From an uncultured bacterium (GTDB lineage Bacteria > Verrucomicrobiota > Verrucomicrobiia > Verrucomicrobiales > DEV007), in assembly GCA_963977015.1 (NCBI GenBank), contig CAXBMO010000015.1:64001-128000 (forward strand): a DNA stretch of 64,000 nucleotides. The letters run 5' to 3'. Positions 17,901-62,150 of this stretch are shown in pieces. The notes beneath the pieces are model-generated. The model saw only the letters and a program-made list of their open reading frames with translations. It did not search any database and was not told where the DNA came from. Every line of letters begins with the position of its first letter. Positions within the stretch are counted from its first letter, which is position 1. Made by a program: the position numbers and the translations under genes.

Positions 17901-19280
17901 TTAGACGGTCAATTTGGAGAGCATCATCGATGCGAGATTGAGTACGAGGAAGAACCCGCACATGTCGGTCGCCGTTGTCAAAATGGGACCCGATGCTAGG
18001 GCCGGGTCGATTTTGAAACGTTTCAGAATGAGCGGGACCATCCCTCCAAGAAGAACGGACAGCATCGTATTGAGCGTGAGCGCGCCACCAACCACCAGCC
18101 CCAACCAGACATTGCTTTTCCAAAGCCCGGCGATGCTTCCGAGAATGAGGCCGAGAATCAATCCGTTGATGATCCCGAGAACGCCCTCCTTGAACACAAT
18201 CCGAAGATACTCCGTGGGTCGAATCAGGCCAAGCGTCAGTTCCCGAATGCTCACCGCGACTGCCTGGTTTCCTGAACACCCGCTCATGTCGGAAATGATC
18301 GGCAAAAAGATCGCCAGTGCGATCACTGCCTGCAGCGTATCTTCATGCATCGCAATGACACTCGCGGCAACCAGGTTGAGCACGATGTTTGGCGCAAGCC
18401 AGGCCAGCCGTCGGCGGGAGCGGAGAAACATCGGCATGCTCCGGAGTTCCTCACCCCCCACAATTCCGCTGACGTGAAGGTAGTCCTCGGTCTGGTGGTG
18501 CGCCGTCGCGTCAATCACCGACTGATGACTGATAACGCCTTTCAACACCTTCTCTCCATCGACGACGGGTAGACCAATGTAGGACTTCTCTTCAAAAATC
18601 GTCTTCAAGGCTTCAAAACTGTCGCTCACCGACGCAAAACTTGGGTTGGGCAGCATGATCTTCGTCACGGCGCGGTCTCCCGGGGTCATCACCAGATCCC
18701 GCAGTCGCAGGACGCCCTTGAGTTCCCCTTCATCCCCGACCACATACACATACTGCACGTCCAAGTCTTTGTAGCGGTCTGCGTTCTTGCCCAATTCCTT
18801 CACCACATCTGCAACCGTCAGGCTATCGCGAACCGCGGCATAGGAATCCGACATGAGTCCGCCCGCGGTATCCCAAGGGTAGTTGGAACGTTCGCGAAGA
18901 TTGTCCGCCTCGACCGAATCGTCCATCTCCGCGAGAAGCGCTTCGGAGTCGTCGTTGTCCATCTCGCGCAGGAGATCGGCCCCAACGTCATCGGGCAGTT
19001 GCTCAACGATGTCGGCAGCTGCGGAAGCCGCAATGTCTTCAAGAATGTCCTTCGCCTGAACTTCGGGAAGGTGCTCCAGAAGTTCTGCGGCAACCTCCGG
19101 TTCCAGCAACTCAACCAGTTGATTCCGGCTTTCATCGTTGAGGTGAGCGATCAGGTGGCGTTGATCCTCCGCAGAAAGCCCCTCCAGAATCTCAGTGATC
19201 CGGAATTGATCATCGCTCTCTACAAGTTTGGTGAGTTCATCCCAGAGGCGAACCTCTTCATGTTCGGTGGCAGTCGGCAT
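17901..19280 (-). CDS. mgtE: Magnesium transporter MgtE
   Basis: Acidic N-domain, tandem CBS (TAGGLM), TM domain with SG.SGNQ and DPALASGP..TT..D. Confidence 0.95.
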   Translation of the reverse strand: MPTATEHEEVRLWDELTKLVESDDQFRITEILEGLSAEDQRHLIAHLNDESRNQLVELLEPEVAAELLEHLPEVQAKDILEDIAASAAADIVEQLPDDVGADLLREMDNDDSEALLAEMDDSVEADNLRERSNYPWDTAGGLMSDSYAAVRDSLTVADVVKELGKNADRYKDLDVQYVYVVGDEGELKGVLRLRDLVMTPGDRAVTKIMLPNPSFASVSDSFEALKTIFEEKSYIGLPVVDGEKVLKGVISHQSVIDATAHHQTEDYLHVSGIVGGEELRSMPMFLRSRRRLAWLAPNIVLNLVAASVIAMHEDTLQAVIALAIFLPIISDMSGCSGNQAVAVSIRELTLGLIRPTEYLRIVFKEGVLGIINGLILGLILGSIAGLWKSNVWLGLVVGGALTLNTMLSVLLGGMVPLILKRFKIDPALASGPILTTATDMCGFFLVLNLASMMLSKLTV

Positions 19281-19492
19281 CGTGTTCGAAGGGCAAAAAG
19301 CTCAAGCGCGTGGGCTCCCATCGGGTTGAACCAAGCCATCGCGCTCATTTGGCTGTGCTACGTTGCACGAACATCCCGGCGATTCCAACGAATCAGCCGA
19401 CGGATTCCTCCCCCTGTTGCCGGGAGAGCTGGCGCGTGTTTTGGCTTCTCACTTGCACCTCCGGTTCGCCTGTTCATAGTTCGCGGCTCATC

Positions 19493-31072: not shown

Positions 31073-31180
31073 AACAGGGGCTGAGTCGCCACTTTCGCGA
31101 GAAGGGAAGCGAAATCAAGAAAACCGGGCGGCTCGATTTCCAAGTTGCCCCGTGGCCGGAAGCACCCAATCGGTGAAGTG

Positions 31181-33704: not shown

Positions 33705-36251
33705 CTATTCTTGGAACCGGAACGACTCTGAGGAAAAAATGCCGAGGCAAACCCGGCTCCAGGCATCGCGTTCCGAAAGCTTTTCGTTCGATCGCAGATG
33801 CGCGAGGTAGGCCTGGGTTTTGGCGATCGTTCCAGCTTGGGGGCGTTTTCCCAAGGCGATCCGGAATGCGGCGGCGATCCTTTCCGGCTCGTCCCGTTCC
33901 TTCATCGCGAGCAGGCGGTCGGCAAACTGATCGGCGTAATGTTTGGGCAGCGGATTGTTGAGCCAGAACAAGGCCTGGGCCGGCGTTTCCGACTGGGAAC
34001 GCTCGCTCATCGGAACGCCGGATTCGTCGAAACCGAACAGCGGGAACATCTTGCGAATTTCCAGTCCCAACCCCAACGGCGAACGACCGGAAGTCAGGAT
34101 GTAGAGCGCGCGATCTTTCGAGAGATCGGGATGGAGCGGTTCTCCCGATTCCTGAATTGGCAACACTCCCGCGGCAACCAACATCGAATCGTAAATCGCC
34201 TCCGCCTCCAGACGATAACGCGGAAACCGCCAATGAAGCTGGCTGTCCGGATCGATGAGCGCATTTCGTTCTTCCGTTTCACTGCTGAGTCGGTAGGTCG
34301 CGCTAGTCATGATTTTGCGATGCAGTTCCTTGATCGACCATCCGTTTGCGATGAACTCCGAAGCTAACCACTCAAGTAACTCCGGATGGGAAGGTTCGGC
34401 GCCCAATTCGCCAAACTCCGAGGTGGTCGCGACAATGCCCCGGCCAAAATGCCAATGCCAAACCCGATTCACGAAAACCCGCGCCGGAAGCGGATTCGCC
34501 GGGTTCGTCAGCCATTCGGCGAGTTGTTTGCGACCGCTTGCCGAAGTGGGAACTTGGGGTGTTCCCAGCTTCCCTAACGTGGGAACTCCGCGAGGGACCA
34601 ATTCTTCTTCCGTCTGATAAACCTGGCCCCCAATGTGGATGGGAACGTCCTGCGGTTGATCTTCCGCCACCTTCAATGCGACCGGCCGATTGCGCAGCTG
34701 TTCCCGCAATTCCTGGATTTCGCGGTCGAGTTTTTCCAGCTGACTGGAGGGAGATATCAACCATTCGGTTTCGGCGACACTCGGCGGCCAGGCCTCGGGA
34801 TGACTGCGTCGAAACTCCAGAATTTTCGGATCGAGAGAAAGAGCCTCGCCGCGTTCCGGTTCCAACTCGTTGACACGAATCAACTTCAACCGATCCAGCC
34901 GCGGAAACCATTCGTGCCGTTGTGCGAGCAGCCGGATGAGGTTTCTGCCGCGGTGCAAGGTGTAGCTTCCCGCCGAAACCCAGCCCTGGTGCGCTTCGTC
35001 CCAACCTCCGGTCGCTGCGGTGATGGCCGCCTCACCTTTGAGCTTCCCGTTGATCTCGACGTTCGTCGAAACCGGCTCGTCGGCGGCATAACGAACCTGC
35101 AAGGCGTAGGAACCCGCTTCCGGCACGTCCACATAGTATTTTGCCCACTGGTCCTGACGTTTTCGCGTTCCAATCGTCGGGCCATTCTCGTCCGGATATC
35201 CCCGCAGATTCCGTTGTCCCGCATAATCCTCCGCCTCAAACTTGGCGGTGATCAGTTGGGGAAGGCTGTGCAAAGCCGCCTGATATTCCGACTCCCGCTG
35301 CGAGACTCGGGAAACCAGTTGCTCGCGTTCGCGGCTGAGAATCCGCCAGCGTTCCTCGAGTTTTTGACTGAGAATCCGGGCTTCCGAAGAACCCAAATCA
35401 TCCACCAAAGGCTGGATCAATCGGGGCCGGCCATCGCGCCATTCCTCCGAAAAACGGCTCGTGATCCGGGTGCTGCGAAAAATCCCCGCCAGTGCGTAAT
35501 AATCGCGGGTCGGGATCGGGTCGAATTTATGATCGTGGCAACGGGCACAGGCGAAATCGAGCCCGAGGACCGCCTTCGTCAGCGTCGAAATCTGTTCGTC
35601 GATGATGTCGAGTCGGAGCTTGTTGGGATCCGTGCATTCGTCGAACCACGGCCCGATCGCCAAAAACGCGGGCGCGACCTTTTGATCGAGCTTCGCGGTT
35701 TCGTTCTCGGATTCAGGAAGCAGATCTCCCGCGACCTGCTCCGTCAAAAAGCGGTCATACGGTTTGTCCTGGTTGAAGGCGCGAACCACGTAATCGCGAT
35801 AGGGCGCGGCGAGATCGATTTGATCGACTCCATCCACCTTGATCGTCCCCTGGATGTAGCGCGCCACATCAAGCCAATGCCTTCCCCAACGTTCTCCGTA
35901 GTGCGGAGACACCAACAGACGATCGACCAATCGCTCATAGGCGTCGGGCGAATCATCGGCGAGAAAAGCATCGATTTCCTCAATGGTCGGGGGCAACCCA
36001 ATCAATGCGAGGCTGGCTCGCCGAATCAGCGCTTCGCGATCCGCCGACTCGACGGGTTTCACGTCATTGCGCTCCATGTTCGCGAGGATGAAGCGATCGA
36101 TCTCGTTTTTCACCCAAACGCGGTCTTCGACCTGCGGCAAATCCGGACTCGTCAGCGGTTGATACGACCAATGCGGGCTTTCTTCCGCCACACCGGCCAT
36201 GCGGCACAGGAGGAGGAAGAGCAACATCGCTGGGGAGATCCAAGATCGCAT
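33705..36251 (-). CDS. DUF1549/DUF1553 (PSD1-type) protein with CBM-like insertion
   Basis: HWSYQP, N.ID.FI, YGERWGRHWLDVARY, CARCHDHKFDP, ARV.VNRVW..HFGRGIV, PSHPELL; start taken at ATG 36251. Confidence 0.88.
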   Translation of the reverse strand: MRSWISPAMLLFLLLCRMAGVAEESPHWSYQPLTSPDLPQVEDRVWVKNEIDRFILANMERNDVKPVESADREALIRRASLALIGLPPTIEEIDAFLADDSPDAYERLVDRLLVSPHYGERWGRHWLDVARYIQGTIKVDGVDQIDLAAPYRDYVVRAFNQDKPYDRFLTEQVAGDLLPESENETAKLDQKVAPAFLAIGPWFDECTDPNKLRLDIIDEQISTLTKAVLGLDFACARCHDHKFDPIPTRDYYALAGIFRSTRITSRFSEEWRDGRPRLIQPLVDDLGSSEARILSQKLEERWRILSREREQLVSRVSQRESEYQAALHSLPQLITAKFEAEDYAGQRNLRGYPDENGPTIGTRKRQDQWAKYYVDVPEAGSYALQVRYAADEPVSTNVEINGKLKGEAAITAATGGWDEAHQGWVSAGSYTLHRGRNLIRLLAQRHEWFPRLDRLKLIRVNELEPERGEALSLDPKILEFRRSHPEAWPPSVAETEWLISPSSQLEKLDREIQELREQLRNRPVALKVAEDQPQDVPIHIGGQVYQTEEELVPRGVPTLGKLGTPQVPTSASGRKQLAEWLTNPANPLPARVFVNRVWHWHFGRGIVATTSEFGELGAEPSHPELLEWLASEFIANGWSIKELHRKIMTSATYRLSSETEERNALIDPDSQLHWRFPRYRLEAEAIYDSMLVAAGVLPIQESGEPLHPDLSKDRALYILTSGRSPLGLGLEIRKMFPLFGFDESGVPMSERSQSETPAQALFWLNNPLPKHYADQFADRLLAMKERDEPERIAAAFRIALGKRPQAGTIAKTQAYLAHLRSNEKLSERDAWSRVCLGIFSSESFRFQE

Positions 36252-36282
36252 TCCGGCAACTTGCCTCCTCTCCAGCCACCTC

Positions 36283-37317
36283 TCAAGCAGCTTCGGAAAG
36301 GAGATGCCGGGGGACAAAAAGCTGGACCGTTCCCTGGCGAGGCCGAAGCAGAACGTGTTGGGCGGTAATGCTTTGCGCGACATTGGGTTCACTGAGCAGA
36401 TACAACAGTTCCTCGTCGGCCGGATTTCGATCCGTGCCCGTTTTCGCGAAATAATCGCGAATGTAATCGTAACGACGGCAGGTGGTTTCGTAGATCTCGA
36501 GCGATGCGACCGTGGAGCGCTTGTTTTCGAGCATCCGGTAGTCGTTCGTGGTGATCAGCACTTCATCCGGCTTCGCCCATCGCAAGGCATGTCGCCGCGG
36601 GCTTCGCTCGATCACGACGCGTTCGTCGTTTTCCGTTCCCACCAGGGTCAGCAGTCCGGGAGCGATCATCCTAGTGTCGCGCAGCATCTTCAGGGCATCC
36701 TCAAAGCCTCGCGCCTCCTCCAACACCCGCCGAATCAGGAGCAGAACCGGATAACCGGTTTTGCAGGTCGGCTCGCTGCCCATCACCGCATTCAAAATCA
36801 CGGCAAACCCGTTGGCGGATTGCCCGGTCACCACGCCGGAGAACCCCGGCCAACCCGCGTTGGTGAAACAGGCGCGCTCGTTGTTGCGGTAGTGCACGAG
36901 GCAGCTGGCCTGAGCCAGGGCATGCTCCGGAAACCAATCCATGTTTCGCGCGATAACGGGACCATTCGGAGTCGGGATCGAGATCGTGGAGCATCCCAGC
37001 TGCAGGATCATGAGATCGTAGGACACGTTTGCGATCGCCACTTTTCGCCAATCCTGATCGACCAGTTTCGCAAATGCCCGGATTTCGCCGTGAAAGCGGC
37101 CTCCGGTTCGCATTCTGAGCAGATCGGCGACGAGATCGAGGCCCGTGGGAATCTCCGAAATGATCTCACCAAGCAGCCTCCGCGAACCTGAGATCAGGGG
37201 ATCCGCGAGACTCGAGAATCGCTCCGATACGGGGATGGAGAGATCAACAACGGCGGAAGGCGTTTCCACCCATGGCGGGTTGGGAGATGGCATCAAAGGG
37301 TTGGGCTTAGGGTTCAA
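36283..37317 (-). CDS. C45-family / acid ceramidase-like Ntn hydrolase
   Basis: GCST nucleophile, ARNMDW, G..G..TG, TNDY. Confidence 0.8.
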   Translation of the reverse strand: MNPKPNPLMPSPNPPWVETPSAVVDLSIPVSERFSSLADPLISGSRRLLGEIISEIPTGLDLVADLLRMRTGGRFHGEIRAFAKLVDQDWRKVAIANVSYDLMILQLGCSTISIPTPNGPVIARNMDWFPEHALAQASCLVHYRNNERACFTNAGWPGFSGVVTGQSANGFAVILNAVMGSEPTCKTGYPVLLLIRRVLEEARGFEDALKMLRDTRMIAPGLLTLVGTENDERVVIERSPRRHALRWAKPDEVLITTNDYRMLENKRSTVASLEIYETTCRRYDYIRDYFAKTGTDRNPADEELLYLLSEPNVAQSITAQHVLLRPRQGTVQLFVPRHLLSEAA

Positions 37318-48761: not shown

Positions 48762-50081
48762 TCAACGATCCAGAAGCGCAAACTTCAGTTCGCCAGAAGA
48801 CGCGACATCGCCATTGACGATGCAGCGACATCTCGCCTGGCCGATGTTTCGCTTCACCTTCAAAAACTCGGCTTCAATGAAAAGGGTATCACCCGGCATC
48901 ACCGGACGGCGAAATTTCACGGAATCCGCACTCACAAAATAGCCGATCTTGCCCTGATTCTCGGGTTTGCGGAGCATGATGATGCTGGCGACTTGCGCCA
49001 TCGCCTCAACCTGGAGAACGCCAGGCATGACGGGATGGCCCGGGAAGTGGCCCTGGAAGTATGGCTCGTTGATCGTCACCTGCTTCACCCCGGTACACTT
49101 CATGTCGCCTTCGAAATCGACGATGCGGTCGACCATGAGGAAGGGATAGCGATGAGGAAGAATCTTCATCACCTCGTTCACGTCGAGCACGCCTTTGCCG
49201 GTCGGGATATTGAGCGGCTTCGGCGCCGCGGCTTCCACTTCCTTAAAGGCATTGTTCAGGCGTTGGGCCATCAGGGTGTTTGGCCGATGCCCGGGTTTGA
49301 TCGCGATGACGTGGCCCATGATGCGGCGTCCGCTCAGCATCAAATCGCCGATGAGATCGAGAATTTTGTGCCGCACAAATTCTTCCTTAAAGCGCATCGC
49401 TTCCTTGCTCATCACTTCTTCACCGCGAATCACCACTGCATTTTCGAGACTTCCGCCCTGAATCAGCCCCTTGTCCATCAGCGGCTTCACGTCCTCGTAG
49501 TAAACAAAGGTGCGCGCCGCGGCGATTTCCTTTTCGTAGGTCTCCGGATTGATCTCGAGACTCTTGTATTGGGTGAACCGGCCGTCGGGCCCTTCCTGGG
49601 TGCAGGAAATCCGGAACTTCTTGTCGGGAACGACCGTGATAATCGAACCATTGGTTTCGAGATGGATCGGTTCGCGGACCTCATAAACCTTGCGGAGTTG
49701 ATCCTGCTTTTCGAGCCCCGCCTTTTTCACCAGTTCCACGAAAGGACGCGAACTGCCGTCACCGATGGGAGGTTCGTTGGCGTCCATCTCGACAATCGCA
49801 TTATCGACGCCCATTCCGGTGAGAGCGGAGATAACGTGCTCGACGGTGTGCACTTTCACGCTGCCTTCCGCGATGGTGGTGGCCCGCTCGACTTCCTGAA
49901 CCTTGCTAACGTGTGCATCGAGAAATGGCTTATCTTCCAAGTCAACACGGCGGAACTTGATCCCGTGATCGGTGGGAGCCGGTTGCAGCGTTAGAGAAAC
50001 TTTTTCACCGGTATGAAGGGAAGTCCCCGCAAGGGTCGCGGATTTGGCAAGAGTATGTTGGTATTCGATTGGGCCAGCCAT
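48762..50081 (-). CDS. lpxC: Bifunctional LpxC / FabZ
   Basis: TVEH, PIGDGS, ARTF, RHKILD.IGD, then FabZ LPHRYPFL.VD and FQGHFP..PVMPGVL. Confidence 0.96.
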   Translation of the reverse strand: MAGPIEYQHTLAKSATLAGTSLHTGEKVSLTLQPAPTDHGIKFRRVDLEDKPFLDAHVSKVQEVERATTIAEGSVKVHTVEHVISALTGMGVDNAIVEMDANEPPIGDGSSRPFVELVKKAGLEKQDQLRKVYEVREPIHLETNGSIITVVPDKKFRISCTQEGPDGRFTQYKSLEINPETYEKEIAAARTFVYYEDVKPLMDKGLIQGGSLENAVVIRGEEVMSKEAMRFKEEFVRHKILDLIGDLMLSGRRIMGHVIAIKPGHRPNTLMAQRLNNAFKEVEAAAPKPLNIPTGKGVLDVNEVMKILPHRYPFLMVDRIVDFEGDMKCTGVKQVTINEPYFQGHFPGHPVMPGVLQVEAMAQVASIIMLRKPENQGKIGYFVSADSVKFRRPVMPGDTLFIEAEFLKVKRNIGQARCRCIVNGDVASSGELKFALLDR

Positions 50082-51404: not shown

Positions 51405-52679
51405 ATGTTAGATATTCGCATTGTCCGGGACGACCCGGAAATGGTCAAAAAGCGCGTCGCGACCCGTGGTGGGGATGCACACGCTTTGGTCGATGAAGTG
51501 TTGGCGTGTGACGAAACGCGCCGGTCCGCCGAAACCGAAAAGCAGAAGCTGCAAAGCGAGCGCAAGAGCGAGTCCAAAATGATTGGTCAGCTCAAGGGCA
51601 AGGGCGAAGACACTTCCGAAGTCGAAGCAAAGGTCCGGGCGATTGGCGATCGGATCAAAGAAATCGGGGAAACCGCCGACGCGGCGGACGAGCGCCAACG
51701 CGAGCTTCTTCTCCAGATACCCAATTTGCCACACGAAGCGTGCCCGGTCGGGCTCGACGAAACCGCGAATCCAGAAGTCCGGGTTTGGGGGGAGAAACCC
51801 GTGTTTGACGGTTTTGAGCCGAAAGATCACCTGGAACTGGGCAACGCGCTCGGAATGCTCGATTTCGAGGCCGGAACCAAGATCAGCACCGGTGGATTTT
51901 CGGTCTTCCGCGGCCCCGGCGCCCGGTTGGAACGCAGCTTGATCAATTTCATGCTCAACCTCCACACCGGCGAGCACGGCTACACCGAAATCAGCCCGCC
52001 GTTCATCATCAATCGCGATTGCATGTTCGGCACCGGCCAGCTTCCCAAATTTGAGGACGACATGTATGGAATCGAGGACAACAAGTTTTTCCTCGCGCCA
52101 ACGGCCGAAGTTCCCGTCACCAACTTATGGCGAGACATGATCGTGAAGCAGGAAGAACTCCCGATCAAAGCGACTGCCTACACCCCGTGTTTCCGCCGCG
52201 AAGCCGGAGCTGCCGGTCGCGAAAATCGCGGCCTCATCCGCATGCACCAATTTGACAAGGTGGAGCTGGTCCGGATCGTCGACCCGGCAGAATCCACCGC
52301 CGCCTTGGAGGAACTGACCGCTGAAGCGGAGAAAGTGCTTCAGCTGCTGGGTCTCCACTATCGCGTGATCGAGCTTTGCACTGGCGATCTCGGCTTCAGC
52401 TCCGCCAAGACCTACGACATTGAAGTCTGGGCACCGGGCCAAAACGCCTATCTGGAAGTCTCCAGCTGCAGCAACTTTGTCGACTACCAGGCCCGCCGCA
52501 TGAATCTCCGCTACAAGGACGAGAACGGGAAAAACCGCGTCTGCCATACCCTGAACGGTTCAGGAACCGCCTTGCCCCGGATCTACGTCGCCCTGATGGA
52601 AACCTATCAACAGGCGGATGGATCGATTGAGATCCCGGAAGCGTTGCGGGGAATTTTTGGGTCGGATCGGATTTCGTGA
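51405..52679 (+). CDS. serS: Serine--tRNA ligase
   Basis: [51 protein letters not shown]. Confidence 0.98.
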
Positions 52680-52865: not shown

Positions 52866-52895
52866 ATCTGCGCCCATCTGCGAAATCTGCGGTTC
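52866..52895. repeat. 30-bp element, left boundary of defence island
   Basis: ATCTGCGCCCATCTGCGAAATCTGCGGTTC; 26/30 inverted match to 60213-60242. Confidence 0.7.
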
Positions 52896-53065
52896 CAATA
52901 GATGCATCCGTTGCACCCTCCCGCGTTGAGATAATCAACTTGGGCAATTTGCCGTAAAACCGCGTTTCAGGACATAAAGACGGCTTTTCTGTCGCGTATT
53001 TACCGTTTTCGCGACAGTTCCGCTCAAATCTGTCTGTCGGATCATCGTCCGGTCTTCGTCAAAAG

Positions 53066-53318
53066 TCACCCTGCCTGATACTTCTTAAAGTTCTCCGCTT
53101 GCTCGAAGATCTCCTTGTAAACTTCATCGCGATCGACTGATCTCCTGCAGCTTGCTGTTGTCCAGGATCACCTTGGCGGCCCGACCTTCGTAAACGATGG
53201 GCACTTTGATCTCGTCGGCCACCGATTCGGTCATCGTGTAGCTGTCCACAACCTCGCCGAAAACATCCAAGGTCGCATCGATGGGCGTGCAGGTGAAGCC
53301 CACATAGGTCGTGTTCGG
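53066..53318 (-). pseudogene. hsdR: Type I R-M HsdR remnants (internal and C-terminal fragments)
   Basis: PNTTYVGFTCTPID...YTMTESVADE...IVYEGRAAKV (53318-53139) joined out of frame to VDRDEVYKEIFEQAENFKKYQAG* (53137-53066). Confidence 0.8.
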
Positions 53319-53396
53319 CTCGATCGATCCTTCCCGCCCAAAATGCGGCAAAGCCGCACAGCAAATTCAAAACTCCGCTCTACTATGTTTAATTCA

Positions 53397-54308
53397 TCAC
53401 TCATCATTCGAATCTTCAGGTTCGCCTGCCTGCCAGTTTCCCGATGGCGTCCACTGATGGTTGCTGACTTCCTTCCTGATCACAGGAAGGAGAAACCGGG
53501 AAAGATCGTTGACCACTTCATCCAATGGCCGGGGAGCGAGCCTTCCTTTGCGCAGGAAGGCATTCCATTGAACTAGTTTCTGATCGTCATTGTAAAACTC
53601 CCCGGTGAACACGATGGGAGTTTGTTTCGGAATCCCGGTTCCGCGTCTTGCGAATGTATTGACGACGGCTTCTGTCAGGACCGCTCCATCGAAGTTCAGG
53701 TGGGATTGCAGCCAGTGAAGGTCGAAGAAATCCTTCATGCGGCTGTTGTCGATCCCAAGAGAAACTGCTGCTTCCAATTTCTCGGCGATCACGGTATCAG
53801 GAGGATAGACGAGAAGACTGGCACTGGGAAAATCGAGTAGTTCGTGCCATTCCTTTTCCACCGCTTTGGGAGTAATGGCGTCGCCGAATCCAACATCGAT
53901 CTGAATGTGGAGGCGAGCTCCCGCTAGTTGAGCGTCCACTTTAGCCCGAATCCCTCCGTATTCCACATCATCACGAATGGATGCCACGGCCACTTTTCCC
54001 CACTCAAGACCATCGACGGGATCAATGTCCATCTGAGTCAGCTTGGTGAATATGCTTTGAATGGCTTCTTCCGTGGCTTCCCCGTATCCGAGGAGGTCCA
54101 GATCGCGGGTCGGCCGATGTTTCTCCGCCTCCCAAATTCGGAACAGTTGAGCCCCTTTCAGCACAAAGCGCTCCCGATACTGGCTCTCGGAAAGTCGATA
54201 GAGGAATCGCCCGGTGGCATACTGCTCCATCAAGGCATTGAGCGGCACACCCTCAGCACGTGAAAGGTTGAGGAGCTTGGCGCGAACGGAAGCAGCTACG
54301 TTCTTCAG
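53397..54308 (-). CDS. AbiEii nucleotidyltransferase toxin (type IV TA)
   Basis: KNVAASVRAKL, RFLYRL, FVLKGA, RPTRDLD, DVGFGD, IAEKLEA...NSRMKDFFD; start uncertain (CTG 54308). Confidence 0.92.
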   Translation of the reverse strand: MKNVAASVRAKLLNLSRAEGVPLNALMEQYATGRFLYRLSESQYRERFVLKGAQLFRIWEAEKHRPTRDLDLLGYGEATEEAIQSIFTKLTQMDIDPVDGLEWGKVAVASIRDDVEYGGIRAKVDAQLAGARLHIQIDVGFGDAITPKAVEKEWHELLDFPSASLLVYPPDTVIAEKLEAAVSLGIDNSRMKDFFDLHWLQSHLNFDGAVLTEAVVNTFARRGTGIPKQTPIVFTGEFYNDDQKLVQWNAFLRKGRLAPRPLDEVVNDLSRFLLPVIRKEVSNHQWTPSGNWQAGEPEDSNDE

Positions 54309-54910
54309 ATCATCGCCTCCAGATAAGGTTTTATCACGTTGCCGACTCGGAGAAGCCGGGCCATTTCGCTCATTTCGCCGATCGTCGCCTTTCGGGCGTT
54401 CAGCGTTTCCCTCAGTGCCTCCACGCAGACGTCGATTCCCAGCTTGTTGCGGTGCTTGAAACAATCCGCCACCGTCCGTGCCGGCGTCGTGATGGCGACT
54501 TCAGTCCCGCCAAGGTGGTGATGCTCCACCCCCTCAGTCTGAAGTGCTTTCACCCGTGTCCTAATGACCCGGATCGTGGGCCAGTCGATCTTGGGAACCC
54601 GGGTCTGTGCGGGGAGCTGAATCCAAACCTCATAAGCTTGCTGGGTGCCGATCTCGTGAAATCTCAGGGCGCTGATCAGGACGATCACAGCGCGGGAGGC
54701 ACTCTTGCGGACCTGGATCAGGTCATGAAACTCGCTGGTCGGAGAGTCCGCATGCTGATAGATTCCACGCCGCACACGCACCAGCGTTCCCTGGTCGACG
54801 AGCCGGGTGATGCTCTGGTCAGAAATGCCAGCGTCCAGAAGCTGCGCCGTCGTCAGCACCTCGTGATCTGAGACGAGAGATGAGAGCTTCTTCTGGAGAA
54901 TAGACGACAT
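54305..54910 (-). CDS. AbiEi antitoxin (type IV TA)
   Basis: wHTH RLV..G.LVRVRRGIY, SAL.FH, T.PARTVADCFK.RNK.G, V..VIKPYLE. Confidence 0.92.
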   Translation of the reverse strand: MSSILQKKLSSLVSDHEVLTTAQLLDAGISDQSITRLVDQGTLVRVRRGIYQHADSPTSEFHDLIQVRKSASRAVIVLISALRFHEIGTQQAYEVWIQLPAQTRVPKIDWPTIRVIRTRVKALQTEGVEHHHLGGTEVAITTPARTVADCFKHRNKLGIDVCVEALRETLNARKATIGEMSEMARLLRVGNVIKPYLEAMI

Positions 54911-54921
54911 GGGTTTGTCGG

Positions 54922-54961
54922 TAAATGTCACACATTATAGATTAAGTGTAACATTTAGCAA
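54922..54961 (-). promoter_or_regulatory. Sigma70-like promoter with overlapping inverted-repeat operator for the AbiE operon
   Basis: Minus strand TTGCTA (54961-54956), 16-nt spacer, TATAAT (54939-54934); inverted repeat TAAATGTCACAC / GTGTAACATTTA. Confidence 0.7.
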
Positions 54962-54990
54962 TGATGAAATTGGCGTTCGGCCGACGCGTT

Positions 54991-56163
54991 TCACGGCAGT
55001 TGATCCGTGGTAACCGATTCGAAAGAATGCGCTTTCAGGTGCTGGCCTACCTCGATAATCGGCCCTTTGAACGAGGCCTCCAGCTTTGGAACATAGTTTT
55101 TGAACCAATTGATCATATCCTCCCAATTCTGTTCATCATAACCGTCGAAGGGCTTCGTGAAACAAATCCGACAGGCTTTTTTCCCCGGTAACAGTTGCCA
55201 ATCCAGAGGCTCTCCGAAAGCACGCTCGATTTCGTCTTTCTTTTCCAGGAGCCGCTTAAAGGCAAACGTGTTCTCATCCGCGTTGCTTCGGGAAAAATAG
55301 AGTTCTACCCGCACCTCCTTTTTGCCGAAAATCAAATTGTAGGCCACACCTGACAAACCCGAGCCCGCACCAATCCAGTGATCCTTTCCCGGATTGATGT
55401 TATTGAAAAGGGAACAAGGGTTGCCTTTAAACGCTGTGAGCAACTGCTCCCAGAAAGCAAGCCGCAGGCGAAAACGCTTTTTCACCTCTTTGCTCACCGC
55501 CTTTTCCTCCGCCTCCTTGGCAGCCATCCCGATCATGAACTCAGTGGACTCCGGGGTTGGGATGATCTGTTCGACATTCAAAAAAAGTTCAGTGCCGGCA
55601 AGATAAGGCGTCAGCTTGAAACATTGGCAGGAAATCCCGTGACCAATCAACCAGAGCGCGGTGTTCGTCACCTCCTTGCGGAATCGTGCCGCGACAAACA
55701 TCACCCGCTGGGTTTGACTCTTATTCAAGGTGACCTCATCGAAGTCTGCCGCTTCAAGAAATTCGACAATGCTCTCTCGGGCATCCAGCGGATCATCCGG
55801 TGACGGTTTCGCCGCTTTGTTCAGAAACTCCTGATAAATTTCGACCACCTGACCCTTGCTTAAATTTGAGCAATACCCCGCATATTTCAACGCTTGCCAA
55901 ACCACATCCCGACCGCTGTCATCCAGCTTATTCTCGATTATCACCAGATTGCCGTCTTTATCCAGCGCTAAAAGATCGAGTCGCTCCTTGGTATCATCAA
56001 AGCCATCAAACTCTTTCTGAATAATTAAGAGTTCCTCGCCGAGCGCATCGGGTGCATGTGCCAGCCACTCTTGGAGGTGATGCCTTTCCGTGAACCCCAA
56101 GTCACTGAAACTCCTCTCGGCCAAGGGTGCGATCCGGTTCGAATCTTTATCAATTTTATACAT
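54991..56163 (-). CDS. NucS-like PD-(D/E)XK nuclease with C-terminal DUF4268-like domain
   Basis: ERHHLQEW, RLDLLALD..GNLVIIENK, QALKY; C-terminal FW...WI...K.EIE..FG..L.W. Confidence 0.8.
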   Translation of the reverse strand: MYKIDKDSNRIAPLAERSFSDLGFTERHHLQEWLAHAPDALGEELLIIQKEFDGFDDTKERLDLLALDKDGNLVIIENKLDDSGRDVVWQALKYAGYCSNLSKGQVVEIYQEFLNKAAKPSPDDPLDARESIVEFLEAADFDEVTLNKSQTQRVMFVAARFRKEVTNTALWLIGHGISCQCFKLTPYLAGTELFLNVEQIIPTPESTEFMIGMAAKEAEEKAVSKEVKKRFRLRLAFWEQLLTAFKGNPCSLFNNINPGKDHWIGAGSGLSGVAYNLIFGKKEVRVELYFSRSNADENTFAFKRLLEKKDEIERAFGEPLDWQLLPGKKACRICFTKPFDGYDEQNWEDMINWFKNYVPKLEASFKGPIIEVGQHLKAHSFESVTTDQLP

Positions 56164-56178
56164 TCAATGTTTCCTTGG

Positions 56179-56367
56179 TTAGGGTTTCGGCTTCGGGAGG
56201 AGGGTGTCGTCGTTGGCATACTGCTCGGCCAGAAAGGCGTGTAGGTCGGACTTGATGAGGACTACCTGCGGCTGGCCCTCAATCGCCTCGCCCAACATGT
56301 GCGGGTAGCCCTCGGCGTCGAGAAGCTCGATGATGGCGGATTCGAGTTGGGCTTCGGTGAATTTCAT
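56179..56367 (-). pseudogene. hsdR: Type I R-M HsdR N-terminal stub
   Basis: MKFTEAQLESAIIELL...GY...VLIK.DL..FL...Y resembles an HsdR N-terminus; ends after 62 aa. Confidence 0.75.
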
Positions 56368-58707
56368 CTATGCCGAGTAACGATTGACCAATTCCAATAC
56401 CCGTGAACGTTGCACTTTCATGACAGACCCCTTAAAGACGATTTCGTTTTCGTCGATGCTCTCAACGTGTGGGGCGATTTCATCCATCTCGTCCAACGTG
56501 AACCCGTATCGCAGCAAAAAAATCTCGTTCTCGTCAGCGGTGCCGTATCTCATGTAGTTTGCGAACCGTGCCGCTCTGGGGTCACCTTCCTTTTCATAGA
56601 ACAGGGTGAAAGCGGCGACATACACATCGGTTAGGGAAAATGAGATTACCTTGTCGAGGTAATCGTAGGTGTCATAAACAAGCCGATCGTACTCCAGGTC
56701 TTCCACGCCTATGCCTTTGAACTCGTTGTAGGAATGCGTGAGTTTCTTGTTTGGCAATGTGTGAGGCGGCATGGAGAAGCCCACTTTCATTTCAGATAAT
56801 CGAGAGGAATATTCCTCGTCATCGATCTCTCCTTCTTCAAGTTGCTGCGCAAGCTTCTGGCGCTCTGAGAGTTTCGTGATGTAATTGTATCGAATCGCCA
56901 AAATTTCCTTGAAGCTGCGCCCCTGAACTCTCATTAGGAGGATTGTAATCCCTGCCGACAGAACCCCTTTTTCCCCTGCCTCCAATGGACGATTTATAGA
57001 GTGTGCAAAAATTAGATGGAATGCGTCCTTCAATTTTTTTCGAATTGGCACCTCCAGCTTGCTGTACTCTCCGGAAGTCAAAATATCGTCTTCAGGTAAC
57101 AGGATGCTCAATACGGTTCTAACCGCATCCATCACCGCCTCCCCATTCAAGCGCTCGACTTGGGATTCCGGGAGGTTTAGGTCTTCATTGATGTTTTCTT
57201 TCTTTACAGCCTCTATGAATTCTCGCCAGTCCTCTGGGATTGCGGCCTGATCTCGATCAAGAACTGATTGAGCTGTAATCAGGCTTTTCTCTTGGAATCT
57301 CTCCGTGAAGGACCGTGCATTCTTCACGATCACGAACCCGTAATCGAACTCATTGGTGTTTTGGCTAGTTCGTCCCGCTCGGCCAATGAGGTTCTTAAGT
57401 CCTAGCGCCTTATCTTCCTGAGAGCCATGAAACGCAAAATTGTGGACCCAAACAACCTTGAAAGGCATATTTACACCTTGAGCCAATGTCGACGTGGCAA
57501 AACAAATTCTCGCAAGCCCCAAACGGGTAAACCTCTCAATCAAAGCCCTAACGGTAAGAGGTATCGAACCGTGGTGAATGACGACGCCCTTCCGCATCTG
57601 AGATACTAGATCCGAATCACGGTCTTCTGCTCCTATTAAGTCCTCAATCTCGTCGATAATCTTGACGCCATCTTCATCAGTGACCTCATCGCACAGGTCC
57701 AAGTAATCCGAGAATTCCTCTTTGTACTTCCCTGAGATGATGGAGGCCTTGGATGTGAACACGAGCAGGCTCTCACCGTCCCCAATTGCAGCTGCGGCTT
57801 GATCGGTTTCATTTAGAAAACAATTCGCCAGCCTATGACCTCCATCGAGGTGCGGAGAAAAAAGATACTGATTTCCGTTGGTGTGGATCTGGATGAATAG
57901 CTTTCCTACGCTGCCCTGGCGGTAGTTCTCTGAGGTGGCATGATCGGTGAAATCGTGCTTACCCAGCTGAGCTGAAGGATTCTCTACAAATGGGTGAGCA
58001 AAGATCTTCTTCGCACCAGGGAAAAGGGAATCAGCCCTACGGACAAATGTGTCGAACCCAATGCCGCGAATCTCTTCTTCGGAAATTTGCGCTTCATCGA
58101 AGATGATCAATCCTACATCAGAGACGGTGTTGGACTTTGTTGCTTCCAGTGCCCGCTCAGGAGTCACCACAAAGACTCTCTTACGTGTTCGGTTGAGGTT
58201 GATGTAGTCAATAAATTGGAGAATCAGAACACTGGGGTCATTAGCAAAAATACTGTAAACTTCGGCTAGATATTCCGCGATCAATGCCCTTGAAGGGACG
58301 ACAATGATCACGTCGCTCGCTTCATCGCGCAATATCTCTCGAAGGAGGTAGGACTTGCCAGCGCTAGTAGGAGCGGAAAAGGAAAAGTAGCGGTTTTCTA
58401 GAATTTTCTGCCGGATGCTGGCCTGTACGGGTGTGAGGAAGTGACCCGTCTCATCTTTTATCTCATCCCTATACTGGCTATAGACGAACGAAATAAAGTC
58501 GTCGGGAGGCTCCGTTTTGTAAAATAGACCCAAAAGGTACATTAGCTTGGGCTCTACTTTCCGAAGCTCCTCCGGGTGGAAGATCTTGAAGCACGCAAGT
58601 TCATACAGGTCTTGTTGGTCCACGGGGCCGTCAGCATGGATTCGCGCGAGGATCTTAGAGATACCGGCCATTGGGTCTTGAGCCCCCTGTATTTCTTTTG
58701 GGCTCAT
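56368..58707 (-). CDS. Ski2-like SF2 helicase (Hachiman HamB-like)
   Basis: LTPVQ, SAPTSAGKS, VVPSRAL, TPER, DEAQ, HHG, ATSTLAQGVN, NLIGRAGR. Confidence 0.85.
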   Translation of the reverse strand: MSPKEIQGAQDPMAGISKILARIHADGPVDQQDLYELACFKIFHPEELRKVEPKLMYLLGLFYKTEPPDDFISFVYSQYRDEIKDETGHFLTPVQASIRQKILENRYFSFSAPTSAGKSYLLREILRDEASDVIIVVPSRALIAEYLAEVYSIFANDPSVLILQFIDYINLNRTRKRVFVVTPERALEATKSNTVSDVGLIIFDEAQISEEEIRGIGFDTFVRRADSLFPGAKKIFAHPFVENPSAQLGKHDFTDHATSENYRQGSVGKLFIQIHTNGNQYLFSPHLDGGHRLANCFLNETDQAAAAIGDGESLLVFTSKASIISGKYKEEFSDYLDLCDEVTDEDGVKIIDEIEDLIGAEDRDSDLVSQMRKGVVIHHGSIPLTVRALIERFTRLGLARICFATSTLAQGVNMPFKVVWVHNFAFHGSQEDKALGLKNLIGRAGRTSQNTNEFDYGFVIVKNARSFTERFQEKSLITAQSVLDRDQAAIPEDWREFIEAVKKENINEDLNLPESQVERLNGEAVMDAVRTVLSILLPEDDILTSGEYSKLEVPIRKKLKDAFHLIFAHSINRPLEAGEKGVLSAGITILLMRVQGRSFKEILAIRYNYITKLSERQKLAQQLEEGEIDDEEYSSRLSEMKVGFSMPPHTLPNKKLTHSYNEFKGIGVEDLEYDRLVYDTYDYLDKVISFSLTDVYVAAFTLFYEKEGDPRAARFANYMRYGTADENEIFLLRYGFTLDEMDEIAPHVESIDENEIVFKGSVMKVQRSRVLELVNRYSA

Positions 58708-59405
58708 GATCTAATTCCGATGATGTACAGAGCGATAGCATCTTCCGACAACCGGATTACGTCGGAATTGGCGAGGGCATTTACGAGGATTTGCTCGAGG
58801 TCAGCGCTATTGACTGAAAACGCTAGGCAAAATCCCCGTTCTCTATTGTCCACGAGTTTGTTAACGGCAACTTCGCTGGCGAAGTGGGGTAGATGCGGGA
58901 GATCAACGAGATCTTTCTCGTCGTCAATAAATTCACAAACCTGCCTCGCAGCAGATCCATAAGCGTTGGCATTGCTATTGAATTTTGCCTCTCCGCAATT
59001 TATTAAATTGCCTGTGCACTCTGTGTAGTAGTCAAAGCCGTGATTGCCAGTAAGCTTCTCCTTCCAAATCTCCGAAAGAGGCAAATTGGTGTGCCCTAAT
59101 TCGTCTACTAGCGTTTGAGCAGCGGAAAGGGAAACCATGAATTCTCCGAAATCTCTTGAAATCTGCCCGTTCGTTGAATTGAAGATCTCAACTAGGGCTG
59201 CAATTGTTCGAATGGCGGTCGCCTCGTAAGAGGCCTTTCCTAAAGGGTTCAGCTTTTGAATCCAGTTAGTGTCGCTTACGATTGAGACCATTTCTTCTGC
59301 GAACGCATTGACATCGTCAACATCGACACCCAAGAGGTGAATCTGGGCTTGCGCGTTGTCTGGCATCTCATCCGAGGTTGGCTGCCTGTTTACAATGACA
59401 TTCAT
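58704..59405 (-). CDS. PD-(D/E)XK nuclease-like protein (Hachiman HamA-like)
   Basis: DFGE ... WKEK..GNHGFD ... GEAK; ATGA-coupled to the helicase. Confidence 0.65.
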   Translation of the reverse strand: MNVIVNRQPTSDEMPDNAQAQIHLLGVDVDDVNAFAEEMVSIVSDTNWIQKLNPLGKASYEATAIRTIAALVEIFNSTNGQISRDFGEFMVSLSAAQTLVDELGHTNLPLSEIWKEKLTGNHGFDYYTECTGNLINCGEAKFNSNANAYGSAARQVCEFIDDEKDLVDLPHLPHFASEVAVNKLVDNRERGFCLAFSVNSADLEQILVNALANSDVIRLSEDAIALYIIGIRS

Positions 59406-59409
59406 TTGA

Positions 59410-60108
59410 TCACGCGTTTCTCGGGTAGGTATCCTCGGGGATCTCAAGATTTCCGGAAATGAGCTTAGGCTGGAGTGTCTCGCGAAGTTTAGTTAGACTC
59501 AGGAACTCGATGGCATTCCGATTGATTTTTTCGAATAGAGTCCCGGCAATTTCGGTGAATCTAGAGACAACAGCATCAGCTGGTAGATGCTGACTGATGT
59601 TGCTATTGTGGTTGCGATTTAGGGTTGCAACTGCAGATCCTGCATTATAACGCTCCAATCCAACGGTCTTAGGAAGGAAGTATGCGTGGTAGGGGGAGGA
59701 TCGTTTGTATTCCTTCACCCATAGTGTGGTATTAAGGGGCCAGAAATCTTGGTGCACGAAGGACACAACGCTCAATTTTCCGCTTCGGCCTGTAGCAACG
59801 GCGGGGAAGAGTGATTTGGGATCAGACAGGGTTGGGTGGTCGATGGAACCCTGTTGGGGGGTGCCGTTGGCAAGGGCTTGGCGGCGGACTTCGGCGCGGG
59901 GAGAGAGTTCGTCGGGGATCGGAATGCCGACTTCGAGGGCATTGTCGATCACCGGGTCAAAGTCCACAAACCAGCTTTTGAAGAGCGCCTGCGCCATCCC
60001 TTCCAGCTTCGCATTCTTCCGTCGATTCAACTCAATCTTGTCATCCAAGGTGTCCCAGAGGGTTTCCTCGAAGGATTTCGTGGGTTTTTTTGGGGAAACG
60101 TTCGCCAT
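59410..60108 (-). pseudogene. hsdS: HsdM N-terminus fused in frame to an internally deleted HsdS
   Basis: [10 protein letters not shown] (HsdM-like start) followed by [29 protein letters not shown] and C-terminal [12 protein letters not shown] (HsdS conserved regions). Confidence 0.75.
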
Positions 60109-60212
60109 TCTTGCTGCCTTTGCCGTGGATTCGCTCACTGAGTGGAGTTATTCACAACCCTGACTGACGTTCAATCCATTTATTTTGGAAATCTAAAGGA
60201 TTTGGGGAGCGT

Positions 60213-60242
60213 GAATCGTAGATTCGGCAGATGGGCGCAGAT
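60213..60242. repeat. 30-bp element, right boundary of defence island
   Basis: GAATCGTAGATTCGGCAGATGGGCGCAGAT; inverted 26/30 match to 52866-52895. Confidence 0.7.
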
Positions 60243-60479: not shown

Positions 60480-62150
60480 ATGAAAACTACTTTCACTCCC
60501 CAGCGGACCACAGAAATTCTCAAGGAAGTCTATTCCAAGGCATCACTCGACGAAGTCACGGATCGCATCTTGAAGGCTGCCTGCGAAATCAGCAATTGCG
60601 TTCACGGCTCGTTTATCCGCGTTTGTTGGAAAACTCGCCTTCTCAGTATTGAATCGACAATCGGCCCGCACTGGAATGAGAACTTGCGAGCGCAGAAAAT
60701 TCCTCTCGGTGAGGGGATCACCGGACATTGTGCCTTAACCGGCCAAACCTACGTCTGCAATGATGCCCAGAACGATCCCAACTACATTCAGCTTTTTCCC
60801 TTCATTCAAAGCGAACTCGCTGTCCCGGTCGAAGTCGAAGGCAAAGTCTGGGGCATCATCAATTTGGATGGAATGAACGTCCATGAATACGGCCGGGAAG
60901 TGGTCGCTGAAATTGAAATGTTTGCTGGCTTGATCGCCGCTGCGATCGAGTACCGGCTGAAGAACGAAAACGATCGTCAGATTCATTTGCGCCTCGCTCA
61001 AGCGGAGAAACTCTCCACGGCTGGCGAGCTGTTGGCGGGAATCGCGCATGAGGTGAACAACCCATTGGCGGCCATCTTGGGAACGTCTTCGATGCTGGCC
61101 ACGGAGTTGACGGATCCTGAGCACTACGAAGCGGCGAAGCTCATCGAAAAACAAGCTCAGCGGGCCGGCAATCTGATTCACCAATTGCTTGCCTTCTCCC
61201 GCAAATCCGAAGGCGACAACCGGAAGGAAGACAACTTGATCGATGTCGTTCGCGAATCGATCGAATTTGTCCGTCCCCAACTTCGGCTCAAACGTTCGAC
61301 CCTGGAGTTCACCCTGCCGGATGGTTCGGAGCTGCGTTCCAAGTTGAATCGCGTTCAAATCCAACAGGTTTTGGTCAACCTGATGACCAATGCTCAACAC
61401 GCGATCGCCGATCGGGGGGAGGACGGCAGAATCTCCGTCAGCATTGAGAGTGATCAATCGAACGCCTACGTGGTTGTGCAGGACAACGGCACAGGAATGA
61501 GCCGCGAAGTTCGGAACAAGCTCTTTCAGCCGTTCTTCACCACCAAGGAAGAGGGTTCAGGAACGGGCCTGGGGCTTTCCATCTGTCAGGACATCGCGAA
61601 TCGCCACCTCGGGACGCTCGAATGCACCAGCACGGAGGGTAGGGGATCGTCCTTTCAGTTTCGGCTTCCTCTCAACGAGCCTGACGGAGGTAGTGAATCG
61701 ACTGCACCCGCCCAACTCCCTTCAGTCCCGTCAGAAAAATCGCGATCCAAGTCGGATCAGCATTTTGCGATTCTGATTGTGGAAGATGAGGACTCCATCC
61801 GCTGGATGTTGGCGAAACTCTTCCGCAAAATCAGCGAGGATGTTTCCGTTGCGGCCTCGGCAGAGGAAGCGCTTGAACTGTGCCAACAACAAGACTTTGA
61901 CATCATTGTCAGCGACATGCATATGCCGGGTCTCAGCGGGGTTGAGCTCTTCCACCGAATCCATCAGCAGAATGCGGCACAACATCCGAATTTCGTGCTC
62001 ATCACCGGCGACATCTCGGATCCGAAAATCCAGCAGCTTGCGTCGGAATCTGAGATCGAGGTCGTCAACAAGCCGTTTTCACCAATCGACCTCTTGGAGC
62101 ACATCAATCGGGTTCGCGAAGCTCCTTCGGCACTGCGATTGGCAGCGTGA
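60480..62150 (+). CDS. GAF-domain hybrid sensor histidine kinase / response regulator
   Basis: GEGITG...SELAVP (GAF), GIAHEVNNPL, QVLVNL..NA, DNG.GM, FFTTK..G.GTGLGL, receiver SDMHMPG. Confidence 0.93.
   Translation: MKTTFTPQRTTEILKEVYSKASLDEVTDRILKAACEISNCVHGSFIRVCWKTRLLSIESTIGPHWNENLRAQKIPLGEGITGHCALTGQTYVCNDAQNDPNYIQLFPFIQSELAVPVEVEGKVWGIINLDGMNVHEYGREVVAEIEMFAGLIAAAIEYRLKNENDRQIHLRLAQAEKLSTAGELLAGIAHEVNNPLAAILGTSSMLATELTDPEHYEAAKLIEKQAQRAGNLIHQLLAFSRKSEGDNRKEDNLIDVVRESIEFVRPQLRLKRSTLEFTLPDGSELRSKLNRVQIQQVLVNLMTNAQHAIADRGEDGRISVSIESDQSNAYVVVQDNGTGMSREVRNKLFQPFFTTKEEGSGTGLGLSICQDIANRHLGTLECTSTEGRGSSFQFRLPLNEPDGGSESTAPAQLPSVPSEKSRSKSDQHFAILIVEDEDSIRWMLAKLFRKISEDVSVAASAEEALELCQQQDFDIIVSDMHMPGLSGVELFHRIHQQNAAQHPNFVLITGDISDPKIQQLASESEIEVVNKPFSPIDLLEHINRVREAPSALRLAA

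Follow-up and report, generated by a model that had tools for sequence, protein, structure and literature searches.

The window analysed here is a stretch of 64,000 nucleotides (nt) of contig CAXBMO010000015.1 (assembly GCA_963977015.1) from an uncultured bacterium of the Verrucomicrobiota, and its subject is a string of minus-strand genes that fills the interval from serS (51405-52679, plus strand) to a GAF-histidine-kinase-receiver gene (60480-62150, plus strand). This island is probably the eroded remnant of a type I restriction-modification (R-M) operon with several blocks of defence cargo, from which the R-M genes were later removed by about five deletions and in which the cargo was kept. 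In transcription order it consists of a 232-amino acid (aa) open reading frame (ORF; 60108-59410) composed of hsdM and hsdS pieces, hamA, hamB, a 62-aa ORF (56367-56179) that begins as hsdR, PDC-S11, abiEi, abiEii and two hsdR fragments (Table 1). The G+C content of the island is 47-53%, and that of the flanks 55-65%. All pieces named by an initial annotation of the window, made by a model from the letters alone, were present on the minus strand, at the same positions or within a few bases of them. Its proposal of selective R-M loss with retention of cargo is the best supported of the explanations considered, with about five deletion joints in R-M sequence, changes at 5 of 89 HsdR positions that are otherwise near-invariant, and all five cargo ORFs complete.

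HsdR relatives were gathered with the 75-aa middle fragment; 120 proteins were listed, and the 76 that were full-length (1040-1100 aa) were searched back against the window. All 76 matched the same three places and no other place in the window significantly: codons 1-54 at 56367..56206 (85% identity, E-value (E) 1e-21), codons 454-515 at 53318..53133 (90-93%, E 6e-28) and the last 22 codons at 53137..53072 (95-100%, E 5e-8). Near 53138 the middle piece passes into the end piece with a change of frame and a loss of about 537 codons. In total, three pieces in three frames retain about 140 of about 1072 codons, and no single ORF runs from the nuclease through the helicase to the C-terminal part. 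The changed near-invariant positions include helicase motif III (GFTGTP to GFTCTP), and the hsd stubs appear to have begun to drift under relaxed constraint.

The 232-aa ORF opens with 13 residues equivalent to residues 8-20 of HsdM of a Klebsiella pneumoniae plasmid homologue (L001; E 0.06, weak if taken alone), and their place before hsdS and their orientation are those expected of an hsdM head. Only about 19 N-terminal codons of the N6-adenine methyltransferase are left, and no ORF of the region, the hsdM head included, had a methyltransferase match in Pfam, NCBIfam or PADLOC. The head is joined to hsdS at a Leu-Trp that is present in both parents. With the closest full HsdS as reference (P0324, 443 aa), the hsdS remnant was 60% identical in both of its blocks (residues 164-248 and 310-433), and the 61 residues between them were absent, with an internal in-frame joint near 59800-59805. 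Left of the protein are the central conserved region with its linker and, after the internal joint, the distal portion of target-recognition domain 2 together with the conserved C-terminal helix; recognition domain 1 is missing altogether, as are about 61 residues of domain 2. The fused ORF stops 4 nt before the hamA ATG and is present in the database as predicted protein P0323. The initial annotation had stated that only R-M genes were broken, by at least four breakpoints; the six joints found are indeed all hsd-derived, and its list was short by one, the second in-frame deletion in hsdS. With HsdM, HsdS and HsdR all incomplete, the locus is not expected to encode a functional type I R-M system.

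The cargo nearest to the hsdM start is a Hachiman system, with a Ski2-like helicase (HamB) beside a nuclease (HamA). HamB covered 779-780-aa homologues completely (100%; best identity 87%), and its Walker A and DExx columns were invariant in the alignment. A search of genome contigs with a HamB profile of 33 sequences gave 80 loci, none from the window's own species (best HamB identity to the window 49%), in all of which (80/80) a HamA homologue was encoded directly upstream of hamB. The window HamA had no match in Pfam, NCBIfam or PADLOC, and Pfam HamA was reached, weakly, by only 3 of 26 members of its family. Its identification rests on synteny and fold because sequence models give nothing, and by such models alone HamA would have been missed. 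The AlphaFold2 model (pLDDT 93.6) had E. coli HamA (8vxy_A) as its best PDB match (E 2.8e-4, TM-score 0.47), and D125, E139 and K141 were invariant in the family alignment. As in E. coli Hachiman (structures 8vx9 and 8vxy), the nuclease and helicase genes overlap (the hamB ATG lies over the hamA stop codon, ATGA), the nuclease has a D...ExK triad of the PD-(D/E)xK type and the helicase is Ski2-like. Unlike the E. coli protein, the window HamA is too diverged for the Pfam and PADLOC models, and the fold match is moderate.

PDC-S11 is described as a candidate defence family defined through its embedding in type I R-M operons (Payne et al. 2024, bioRxiv 10.1101/2024.01.29.577857). The window gene matched the PADLOC model over nearly its whole length (1.4e-169, positions 1-372 of 375) and Pfam DUF4268 (9e-37). 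Behind it, AbiEi (PADLOC 5.5e-66, positions 4-197 of 198; Pfam AbiEi_4 4e-12) is followed by the nucleotidyltransferase AbiEii (PADLOC 5.4e-102, model positions 4-298 of 299 from residue 52; Pfam AbiEii 9e-44). The order of regulator and nucleotidyltransferase and the overlap of the gene ends are those of AbiE type IV toxin-antitoxin pairs; unlike in these, the toxin gene has CTG at its expected start, and its start codon is uncertain. The nearest ATG, GTG or TTG is a TTG 156 nt upstream (54464), inside abiEi, and abiEii translation may be weak or may begin there. A promoter-like site before abiEi (54961-54934) is a consensus match only. The cargo was thus found intact, as initially annotated, in that all five ORFs are complete, with the caveat that abiEii is without a canonical start. 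A second, diverged AbiE-like pair occurs at 5929-7922 (minus strand), between rsfS and a radical-SAM/TRAM gene in core-gene surroundings; 6777-7922 resembles AbiEi_2 weakly (5.6e-6), and 5929-6789 resembles AbiEii weakly (9.6e-6).

The hsdR head does not continue as hsdR. Its ATG follows directly on the hamB stop codon, and the 62-aa mini-ORF (56179-56367) follows hsdR to codon 55, then reads TLLPKPKP and stops 15 nt before the PDC-S11 ATG. The adjacent frame past the head reads PEAETLTKETLNV up to a stop codon, ending 8 nt inside PDC-S11. Taken in order and with a gap, DTLLPK and PEAETLTKETLNV with its stop correspond to the conserved C-terminus of HsdS, which contains LRDTLLPKLISGELRIPEAEQLTEE; about 8 codons were lost between two CCGAAG repeats. 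The two blocks are collinear and at the expected place, and 16 of 18 bases equal the hsdS tail DNA of a related locus, L013 (contig JBPOFZ010000047.1). Head and tail meet at a microhomology of about 4 nt (GACA); beyond this, no extended homology of hsdR-head with hsdS-tail DNA was found, the longest local match being 13 nt.

Plasmid homologues of PDC-S11/DUF4268 stood directly behind hsdS and before hsdR (hsdM-hsdS-DUF4268-hsdR) in 3 of the 4 loci inspected, the fourth being without R-M. Because these homologues sit behind hsdS and hsdS-tail codons precede the window PDC-S11, the PDC-S11-AbiE block is attributed to a second type I operon. The initial annotation had placed three intact genes between the pieces of a single hsdR, which is probably wrong, since the head runs into the tail of another hsdS, and this tail overlaps the start of PDC-S11. 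The head is probably a junction scar from the stacking of two cargo-bearing type I operons and not a piece of the same broken gene, and the head on the one side and the middle and end pieces on the other most likely derive from two different hsdR genes. A candidate hsdR-head remnant just after abiEii, noticed by eye (TGATGAATTAAAC), was discarded, the resemblance being too weak to claim.

Table 1. Features of the island between serS and the GAF-histidine-kinase-receiver gene (positions in the window).
Feature	Position	Strand	Evidence and remarks
hsdM head	60052..60108	-	Start codon and about 19 codons, fused in frame to hsdS at shared Leu-Trp
hsdS remnant	59410..60051	-	PADLOC Specificity_I 2e-46; equals P0324 residues 164-248 and 310-433
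hamA	58704..59405	-	Hachiman nuclease subunit, 233 aa, intact; synteny and fold
hamB	56368..58707	-	Hachiman helicase, 779 aa, intact; PADLOC HamB1 5.7e-56
hsdR head, codons 1-54/55	56206..56367	-	Matched by 76/76 full HsdR, 85%; REase_I positions 4-54 (PADLOC)
Tail remnant of second hsdS (probable)	56162..56208	-	DTLLPK, deletion of about 8 codons with frameshift, then PEAETLTKETLNV and stop
PDC-S11 candidate defence gene (NucS-like N-terminal part and DUF4268)	54991..56163	-	390 aa, intact; PDC-S11 1.4e-169
abiEi antitoxin/regulator	54305..54931	-	Intact; AbiEi 5.5e-66
abiEii toxin	53397..54464	-	Body intact; ORF open from TTG at 54464 inside abiEi
hsdR codons about 454-515	53139..53318	-	Helicase motif III region; SWI2_SNF2 1e-13 (Pfam)
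hsdR last 22 codons and stop	53066..53137	-	Frame differs from that of the preceding hsdR piece

The ancestral locus would have read, on the minus strand, hsdM - hsdS - hamA - hamB - (hsdR head::hsdS tail scar) - PDC-S11 - abiEi - abiEii - hsdR. It would have arisen by the stacking of two type I operons of the same family, each with cargo between hsdS and hsdR, through an illegitimate joint at which hsdR of the first operon, broken off at codon 55, met the final hsdS codons of the second operon, at the microhomology of about 4 nt. The other end of the incoming DNA was most likely anchored by homology in hsdR, and the product would have had one R-M set and two cargo blocks with the 62-aa chimeric mini-ORF between them. 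With such an anchor a complete hsdR is expected behind AbiE, as is the case in L013. Double illegitimate recombination is far rarer than joining that uses a single homologous anchor. The course proposed is like homology-facilitated illegitimate recombination in the transformation of Acinetobacter and pneumococcus; by such a process, an anchor together with a microhomology joint would give the arrangement of recipient hsdR head, foreign cargo and complete hsdR; the link of that process to hsd loci is an inference of the present analysis.

Erosion would have followed through five deletions of R-M sequence, whose joints are visible and whose order is a reconstruction: from hsdM codon 20 to hsdS codon 163 (in frame, at the shared Leu-Trp), of 61 codons inside hsdS (in frame), of about 8 codons in the hsdS tail scar, of hsdR codons 1-453 and of hsdR codons 516-1052. 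Deletions that damaged cargo would have been selected against, and loss of AbiE, a toxin-antitoxin pair, may carry an additional penalty. The hsd pieces upstream of cargo would have been kept as carriers of the operon start region and as a means of leading translating ribosomes to the start of the following cargo gene; the in-frame joints before hamA and the short gaps from stop to start codons fit selection for continued translation of a polycistronic message from the hsdM start region. The two hsdR pieces after the last cargo gene, mutually out of frame, appear to be plain debris. In a simulation, five deletions of the observed sizes placed randomly on the inferred ancestor all missed the cargo in 0.5% of trials, a figure that overstates significance, the locus having been chosen for just this pattern.

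The closest counterpart of the stacked state was L013, a locus of an Opitutaceae metagenome-assembled genome (MAG), whose HsdM and HsdR are of the window's family (68% and 81% to the reference proteins). Its order is hsdM, PDC-S22, hsdS, hamA, hamB, an hsdR head (codons 2-31), PDC-S26, an hsdR head (codons 1-35), a SIR2-like gene, a 30-nt hsdR head, AbiEi/AbiEii, a 145-aa ORF and a 1281-aa hsdR. L013 shares with the window the succession of hsdS, hamA, hamB, hsdR head, further cargo, AbiE and hsdR, and the presence of heads between cargo blocks, and in both loci each cargo gene lies as close to the head after it as it would to a real hsdR. Unlike the window, it has full-length hsdM, hsdS and hsdR ORFs, its own cargo (PDC-S22, PDC-S26 and the SIR2-like gene), a HamB only 45% identical and no hsdS-tail remnants at the joints. 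At the DNA level its head stubs were 96.6-100% identical to each other, 79-80% to the resident hsdR head and 83-84% to the window stub.

Two repeat features of L013 were observed apart from its gene order. The insertion in its hsdR described below resembles a small repeat element inside coding sequence with the frame kept open, and 38-nt motifs related to it occur in hsdM (6094-6131) and earlier in hsdR (18276-18313). A 387-nt direct repeat (3613-3999 and 4355-4741; 93.5% identity) lies upstream of hsdM. Among the remaining HamB loci, hamAB stood beside a divergent, distant hsdR-/hsdM-like pair in L023, L024, L026, L030, L031, L080 and L086, all from Gastranaerophilales or Melainabacteria MAGs; with the hsd pair divergent, Hachiman is adjacent to an R-M-like system there and not nested in it.

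Short proteins (34-109 aa) that resemble the 62-aa ORF numbered 82, the window's own included, and the window's own was on 3 database contigs (longest 275,136 nt). They were a mixture of contig-end fragments, probable frameshift products and heads cut at codons 30-39 with unrelated tails. Chimeras of HsdR (residues 1 to about 38) with an HsdS tail accounted for 9 of the 81 other stub relatives (P0283, P0291-P0293, P0296, P0297, P0300, P0314 and P0315). Their tails matched genuine hsdS C-termini at 77-83% identity, and an HsdS-tail motif was found in residues 29-110 of none of the 76 full HsdR. Although their sequences have diverged, the nine have a single junction in common, E-[IV]-L-T-[KN]-L-R-D, and may therefore descend from one event; the window joint, at codon 55, is a separate event. 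In four cases the stub and a full-length HsdR had longest contigs of exactly equal size (P0242/P0002, P0251/P0055, P0309/P0043 and P0313/P0096), which suggests that stub and intact gene are on one contig. The longest contig was likewise of 9014 nt for both P0123, the HamB relative of highest identity (84%) among those on contigs of more than 4 kb, and the full HsdR P0026; P0026, which may sit beside P0123, was not singled out when HsdR homologues were ranked on identity to the head stub.

One more of the 82, the 98-aa P0253 (3 contigs), has HsdR residues 1-56 fused in frame to about the last 40 HsdR residues, an independent hsdR gutted to head and tail. Two plasmid remnants of this hsdR family were rejected as analogues of the window locus, that of L087 with an annotated transposase gene adjoining and no cargo annotated, and that of L088 with no annotated neighbours. 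In E. coli, an HsdR relative with 64% identity (L089, CP054241.1) lies in the classical immigration control region, between yjiA and symE.

Several observations weigh against stacking followed by erosion. The evidence is a single locus, from one sequence of which the order of events cannot be read, and expression, translational coupling and selection at it are all deduced from the sequence. For the window locus alone, a one-step replacement of hsdR codons 56-453 by a cassette takes fewer events. The two hsdS-tail blocks are individually weak (E 1.9 and 0.098), that is, two short non-significant matches, and at 54305-54311 the expected abiEii start over the abiEi stop reads CTGA, with CTG at 54308, in place of the usual ATGA. 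Nesting of Hachiman was rare: with hsd genes near hamB judged by nine query proteins, 67 of the 80 HamB loci had no hsd gene in their flanks, 13 had some hsd gene nearby, and only 2 (L013 and L017) had hamAB between hsdS and hsdR on one strand. L013 itself is a short-read MAG contig, and its hsdR carries a 486-nt in-frame insertion (18799-19285) with 44-nt inverted repeats (18796-18839 and 19242-19285), so that R-M being intact there means uninterrupted ORFs and not proven activity. No head stub was found in the 8 plasmid records with an hsdR head of this family, each of which had it once and at the resident hsdR. A related hsdR head was found in 862 of 5426 complete E. coli genomes at 887 places, 25 more than there are genomes; the one two-place genome inspected had a plain hsdM-hsdS-hsdR.

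Insertion of cargo may itself have killed R-M, a cassette of hsdS tail, PDC-S11, abiEi and abiEii having replaced codons 56-453 of one hsdR through two illegitimate joints, with the other deletions coming later. This account is possible but doubtful. It saves one event for hsdR, the three hsdR pieces agree with one HsdR family to about the same degree, and nothing between abiEii and codon 454 is recognisable as an hsdR head. It relies, however, on the far rarer double illegitimate joining, whereas with an anchor in hsdR the cassette should be followed by a complete hsdR; precisely this state is present three times over in L013, and the four stub ORFs paired by equal contig size with full-length HsdR point the same way. 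It is rather unlikely, in turn, that the stubs are working parts, with hsdR head and hsdS tail kept as recombination arms for the gain, loss and exchange of cassettes without an integrase. Heads do bound every cargo block of L013 after hamB, and their likeness to each other, against about 80% to the resident gene, is compatible with gene conversion or a common source; head::tail chimeras form a family that has one junction in spite of sequence divergence, cargo abuts the following head as tightly as it would a real hsdR, and no integrase domain was found in the window (51 of 52 large ORFs). The joints, however, fall at differing codons (10, 31, 35, about 38 and 55), a pattern typical of illegitimate joining rather than of a defined site, and selection cannot keep a sequence for future exchange, so that arms would be at most a by-product. 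The suggestion of the initial annotation that the stubs act as homology arms accordingly found indirect backing in the heads that separate cassettes in L013 and recur as short ORFs, but not in extended head/tail DNA homology, in the same cassette in two backgrounds, neither of which was seen, or in a second head in the window, where the partner head is deleted and no direct repeat remains.

A chimeric contig, assembled from several type I loci of a community, is very improbable. A possible metagenome origin and a widespread, highly conserved hsd family would favour mis-joins, but the joints lie inside unique sequence and not in repeats, two of them keep the frame, adjoining ORFs touch or overlap at their stop and start codons, the 62-aa stub ORF is on 3 contigs and the 232-aa fusion is stored as P0323. 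There is equally little to expect of a new function for the 232-aa hsdM'-'hsdS fusion or the head::tail mini-protein, such as a decoy or regulator of type I enzymes. Both ORFs are uninterrupted and head::tail mini-ORFs recur; the fusion, however, has lost the methyltransferase and, of its two recognition domains, the whole of one and a third of the second, and the tails of the recurring stubs are heterogeneous, many resembling frameshift products.

The rest of the window is housekeeping sequence, including genes for 2-oxoglutarate dehydrogenase, folP, lpxA, an lpxC-fabZ fusion and ruvX. Proteins of Planctomycetes-Verrucomicrobia type are encoded by the lpxC-fabZ fusion (48762-50081), a PSCyt2/PSD1 gene (33705-36392) and two DUF7133-cytochrome c genes (20861-23473 and 31145-33622), and verrucomicrobial names were common among the relatives of HsdR and of the stub. 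Integrase, transposase and recombinase domains were absent from the 51 of 52 large ORFs scanned with Pfam. No direct repeats flanking the island were found, and repeats within the region were at chance level; on these two counts the island is neither an integron nor an integrase-borne island, no tRNA search having been made. A scan of the region for consensus promoters and terminators gave no more sites than in shuffled sequence.

Defence genes nested in type I R-M operons, and in BREX and similar operons, are already documented, and PDC families are likewise in print (Payne, Hughes, Fineran and Jackson 2024, bioRxiv 10.1101/2024.01.29.577857); examples are PrrC in EcoprrI and TgvAB in V. cholerae VPI-2 (PMC11411939). 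The window resembles these embedded systems in its cargo between hsd genes in one orientation, with AbiE- and Hachiman-type cargo that fits, and differs from them in that its host R-M genes are fragments. Orientation and flanks are those of embedding, the flanking hsd genes are only remnants and the full state is seen in L013; with the host R-M so reduced, a PADLOC-style definition would not call the cargo embedded. On the origin of embedding, the available discussion of Payne et al. 2024 offers only the idea of a 'genomic sink', and neither its available text nor that of PMC11411939 mentions a mechanism of embedding, hsdR-head scars or head::tail scars. A description of such scars was not found in the open-access full-text literature either. 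Defence islands centred on hsd, including the E. coli immigration control region, are reviewed in PMC12707154; like the window they vary in defence content around type I genes, occupy a fixed chromosomal site and have no integrase, and unlike it their conserved anchors, as there presented, are flanking housekeeping genes, the recurring boundaries of the window being pieces of hsd genes. The arrangement can be compared, in its working only, with an integron cassette array, for its promoterless cargo in one orientation behind one promoter, with recurring boundary sequences, and is unlike one in having no integrase and no attC-like folded site and in boundaries that are truncated coding sequence with variable break points.

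The erosion would in itself be ordinary pseudogene decay, and the recurring scar is the part worth following. As a tentative generalisation for this widespread type I R-M family, the first 10-55 hsdR codons, with or without the hsdS end, could be the standard boundary of nested cassettes, made each time two operons recombine. Such boundaries could then serve as short direct repeats and translation relays by which cassettes are stacked, looped out and moved without an integrase, and the window could be the end state of an array in which R-M was discarded and a free-standing defence operon continues on the former start region of hsdM. In the output of annotation pipelines, a locus of this kind would appear as 'solo' systems with no relation to each other, accompanied by hypothetical mini-ORFs. 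The recurring scar (hsdR head, sometimes with hsdS tail) would provide a searchable signature with which stacking events can be counted and ordered and the movement of cassettes as units can be tested. To this the window would add the other end of the life cycle, in which the host is lost piecemeal and the passengers keep its promoter region and the continuity of reading frames.

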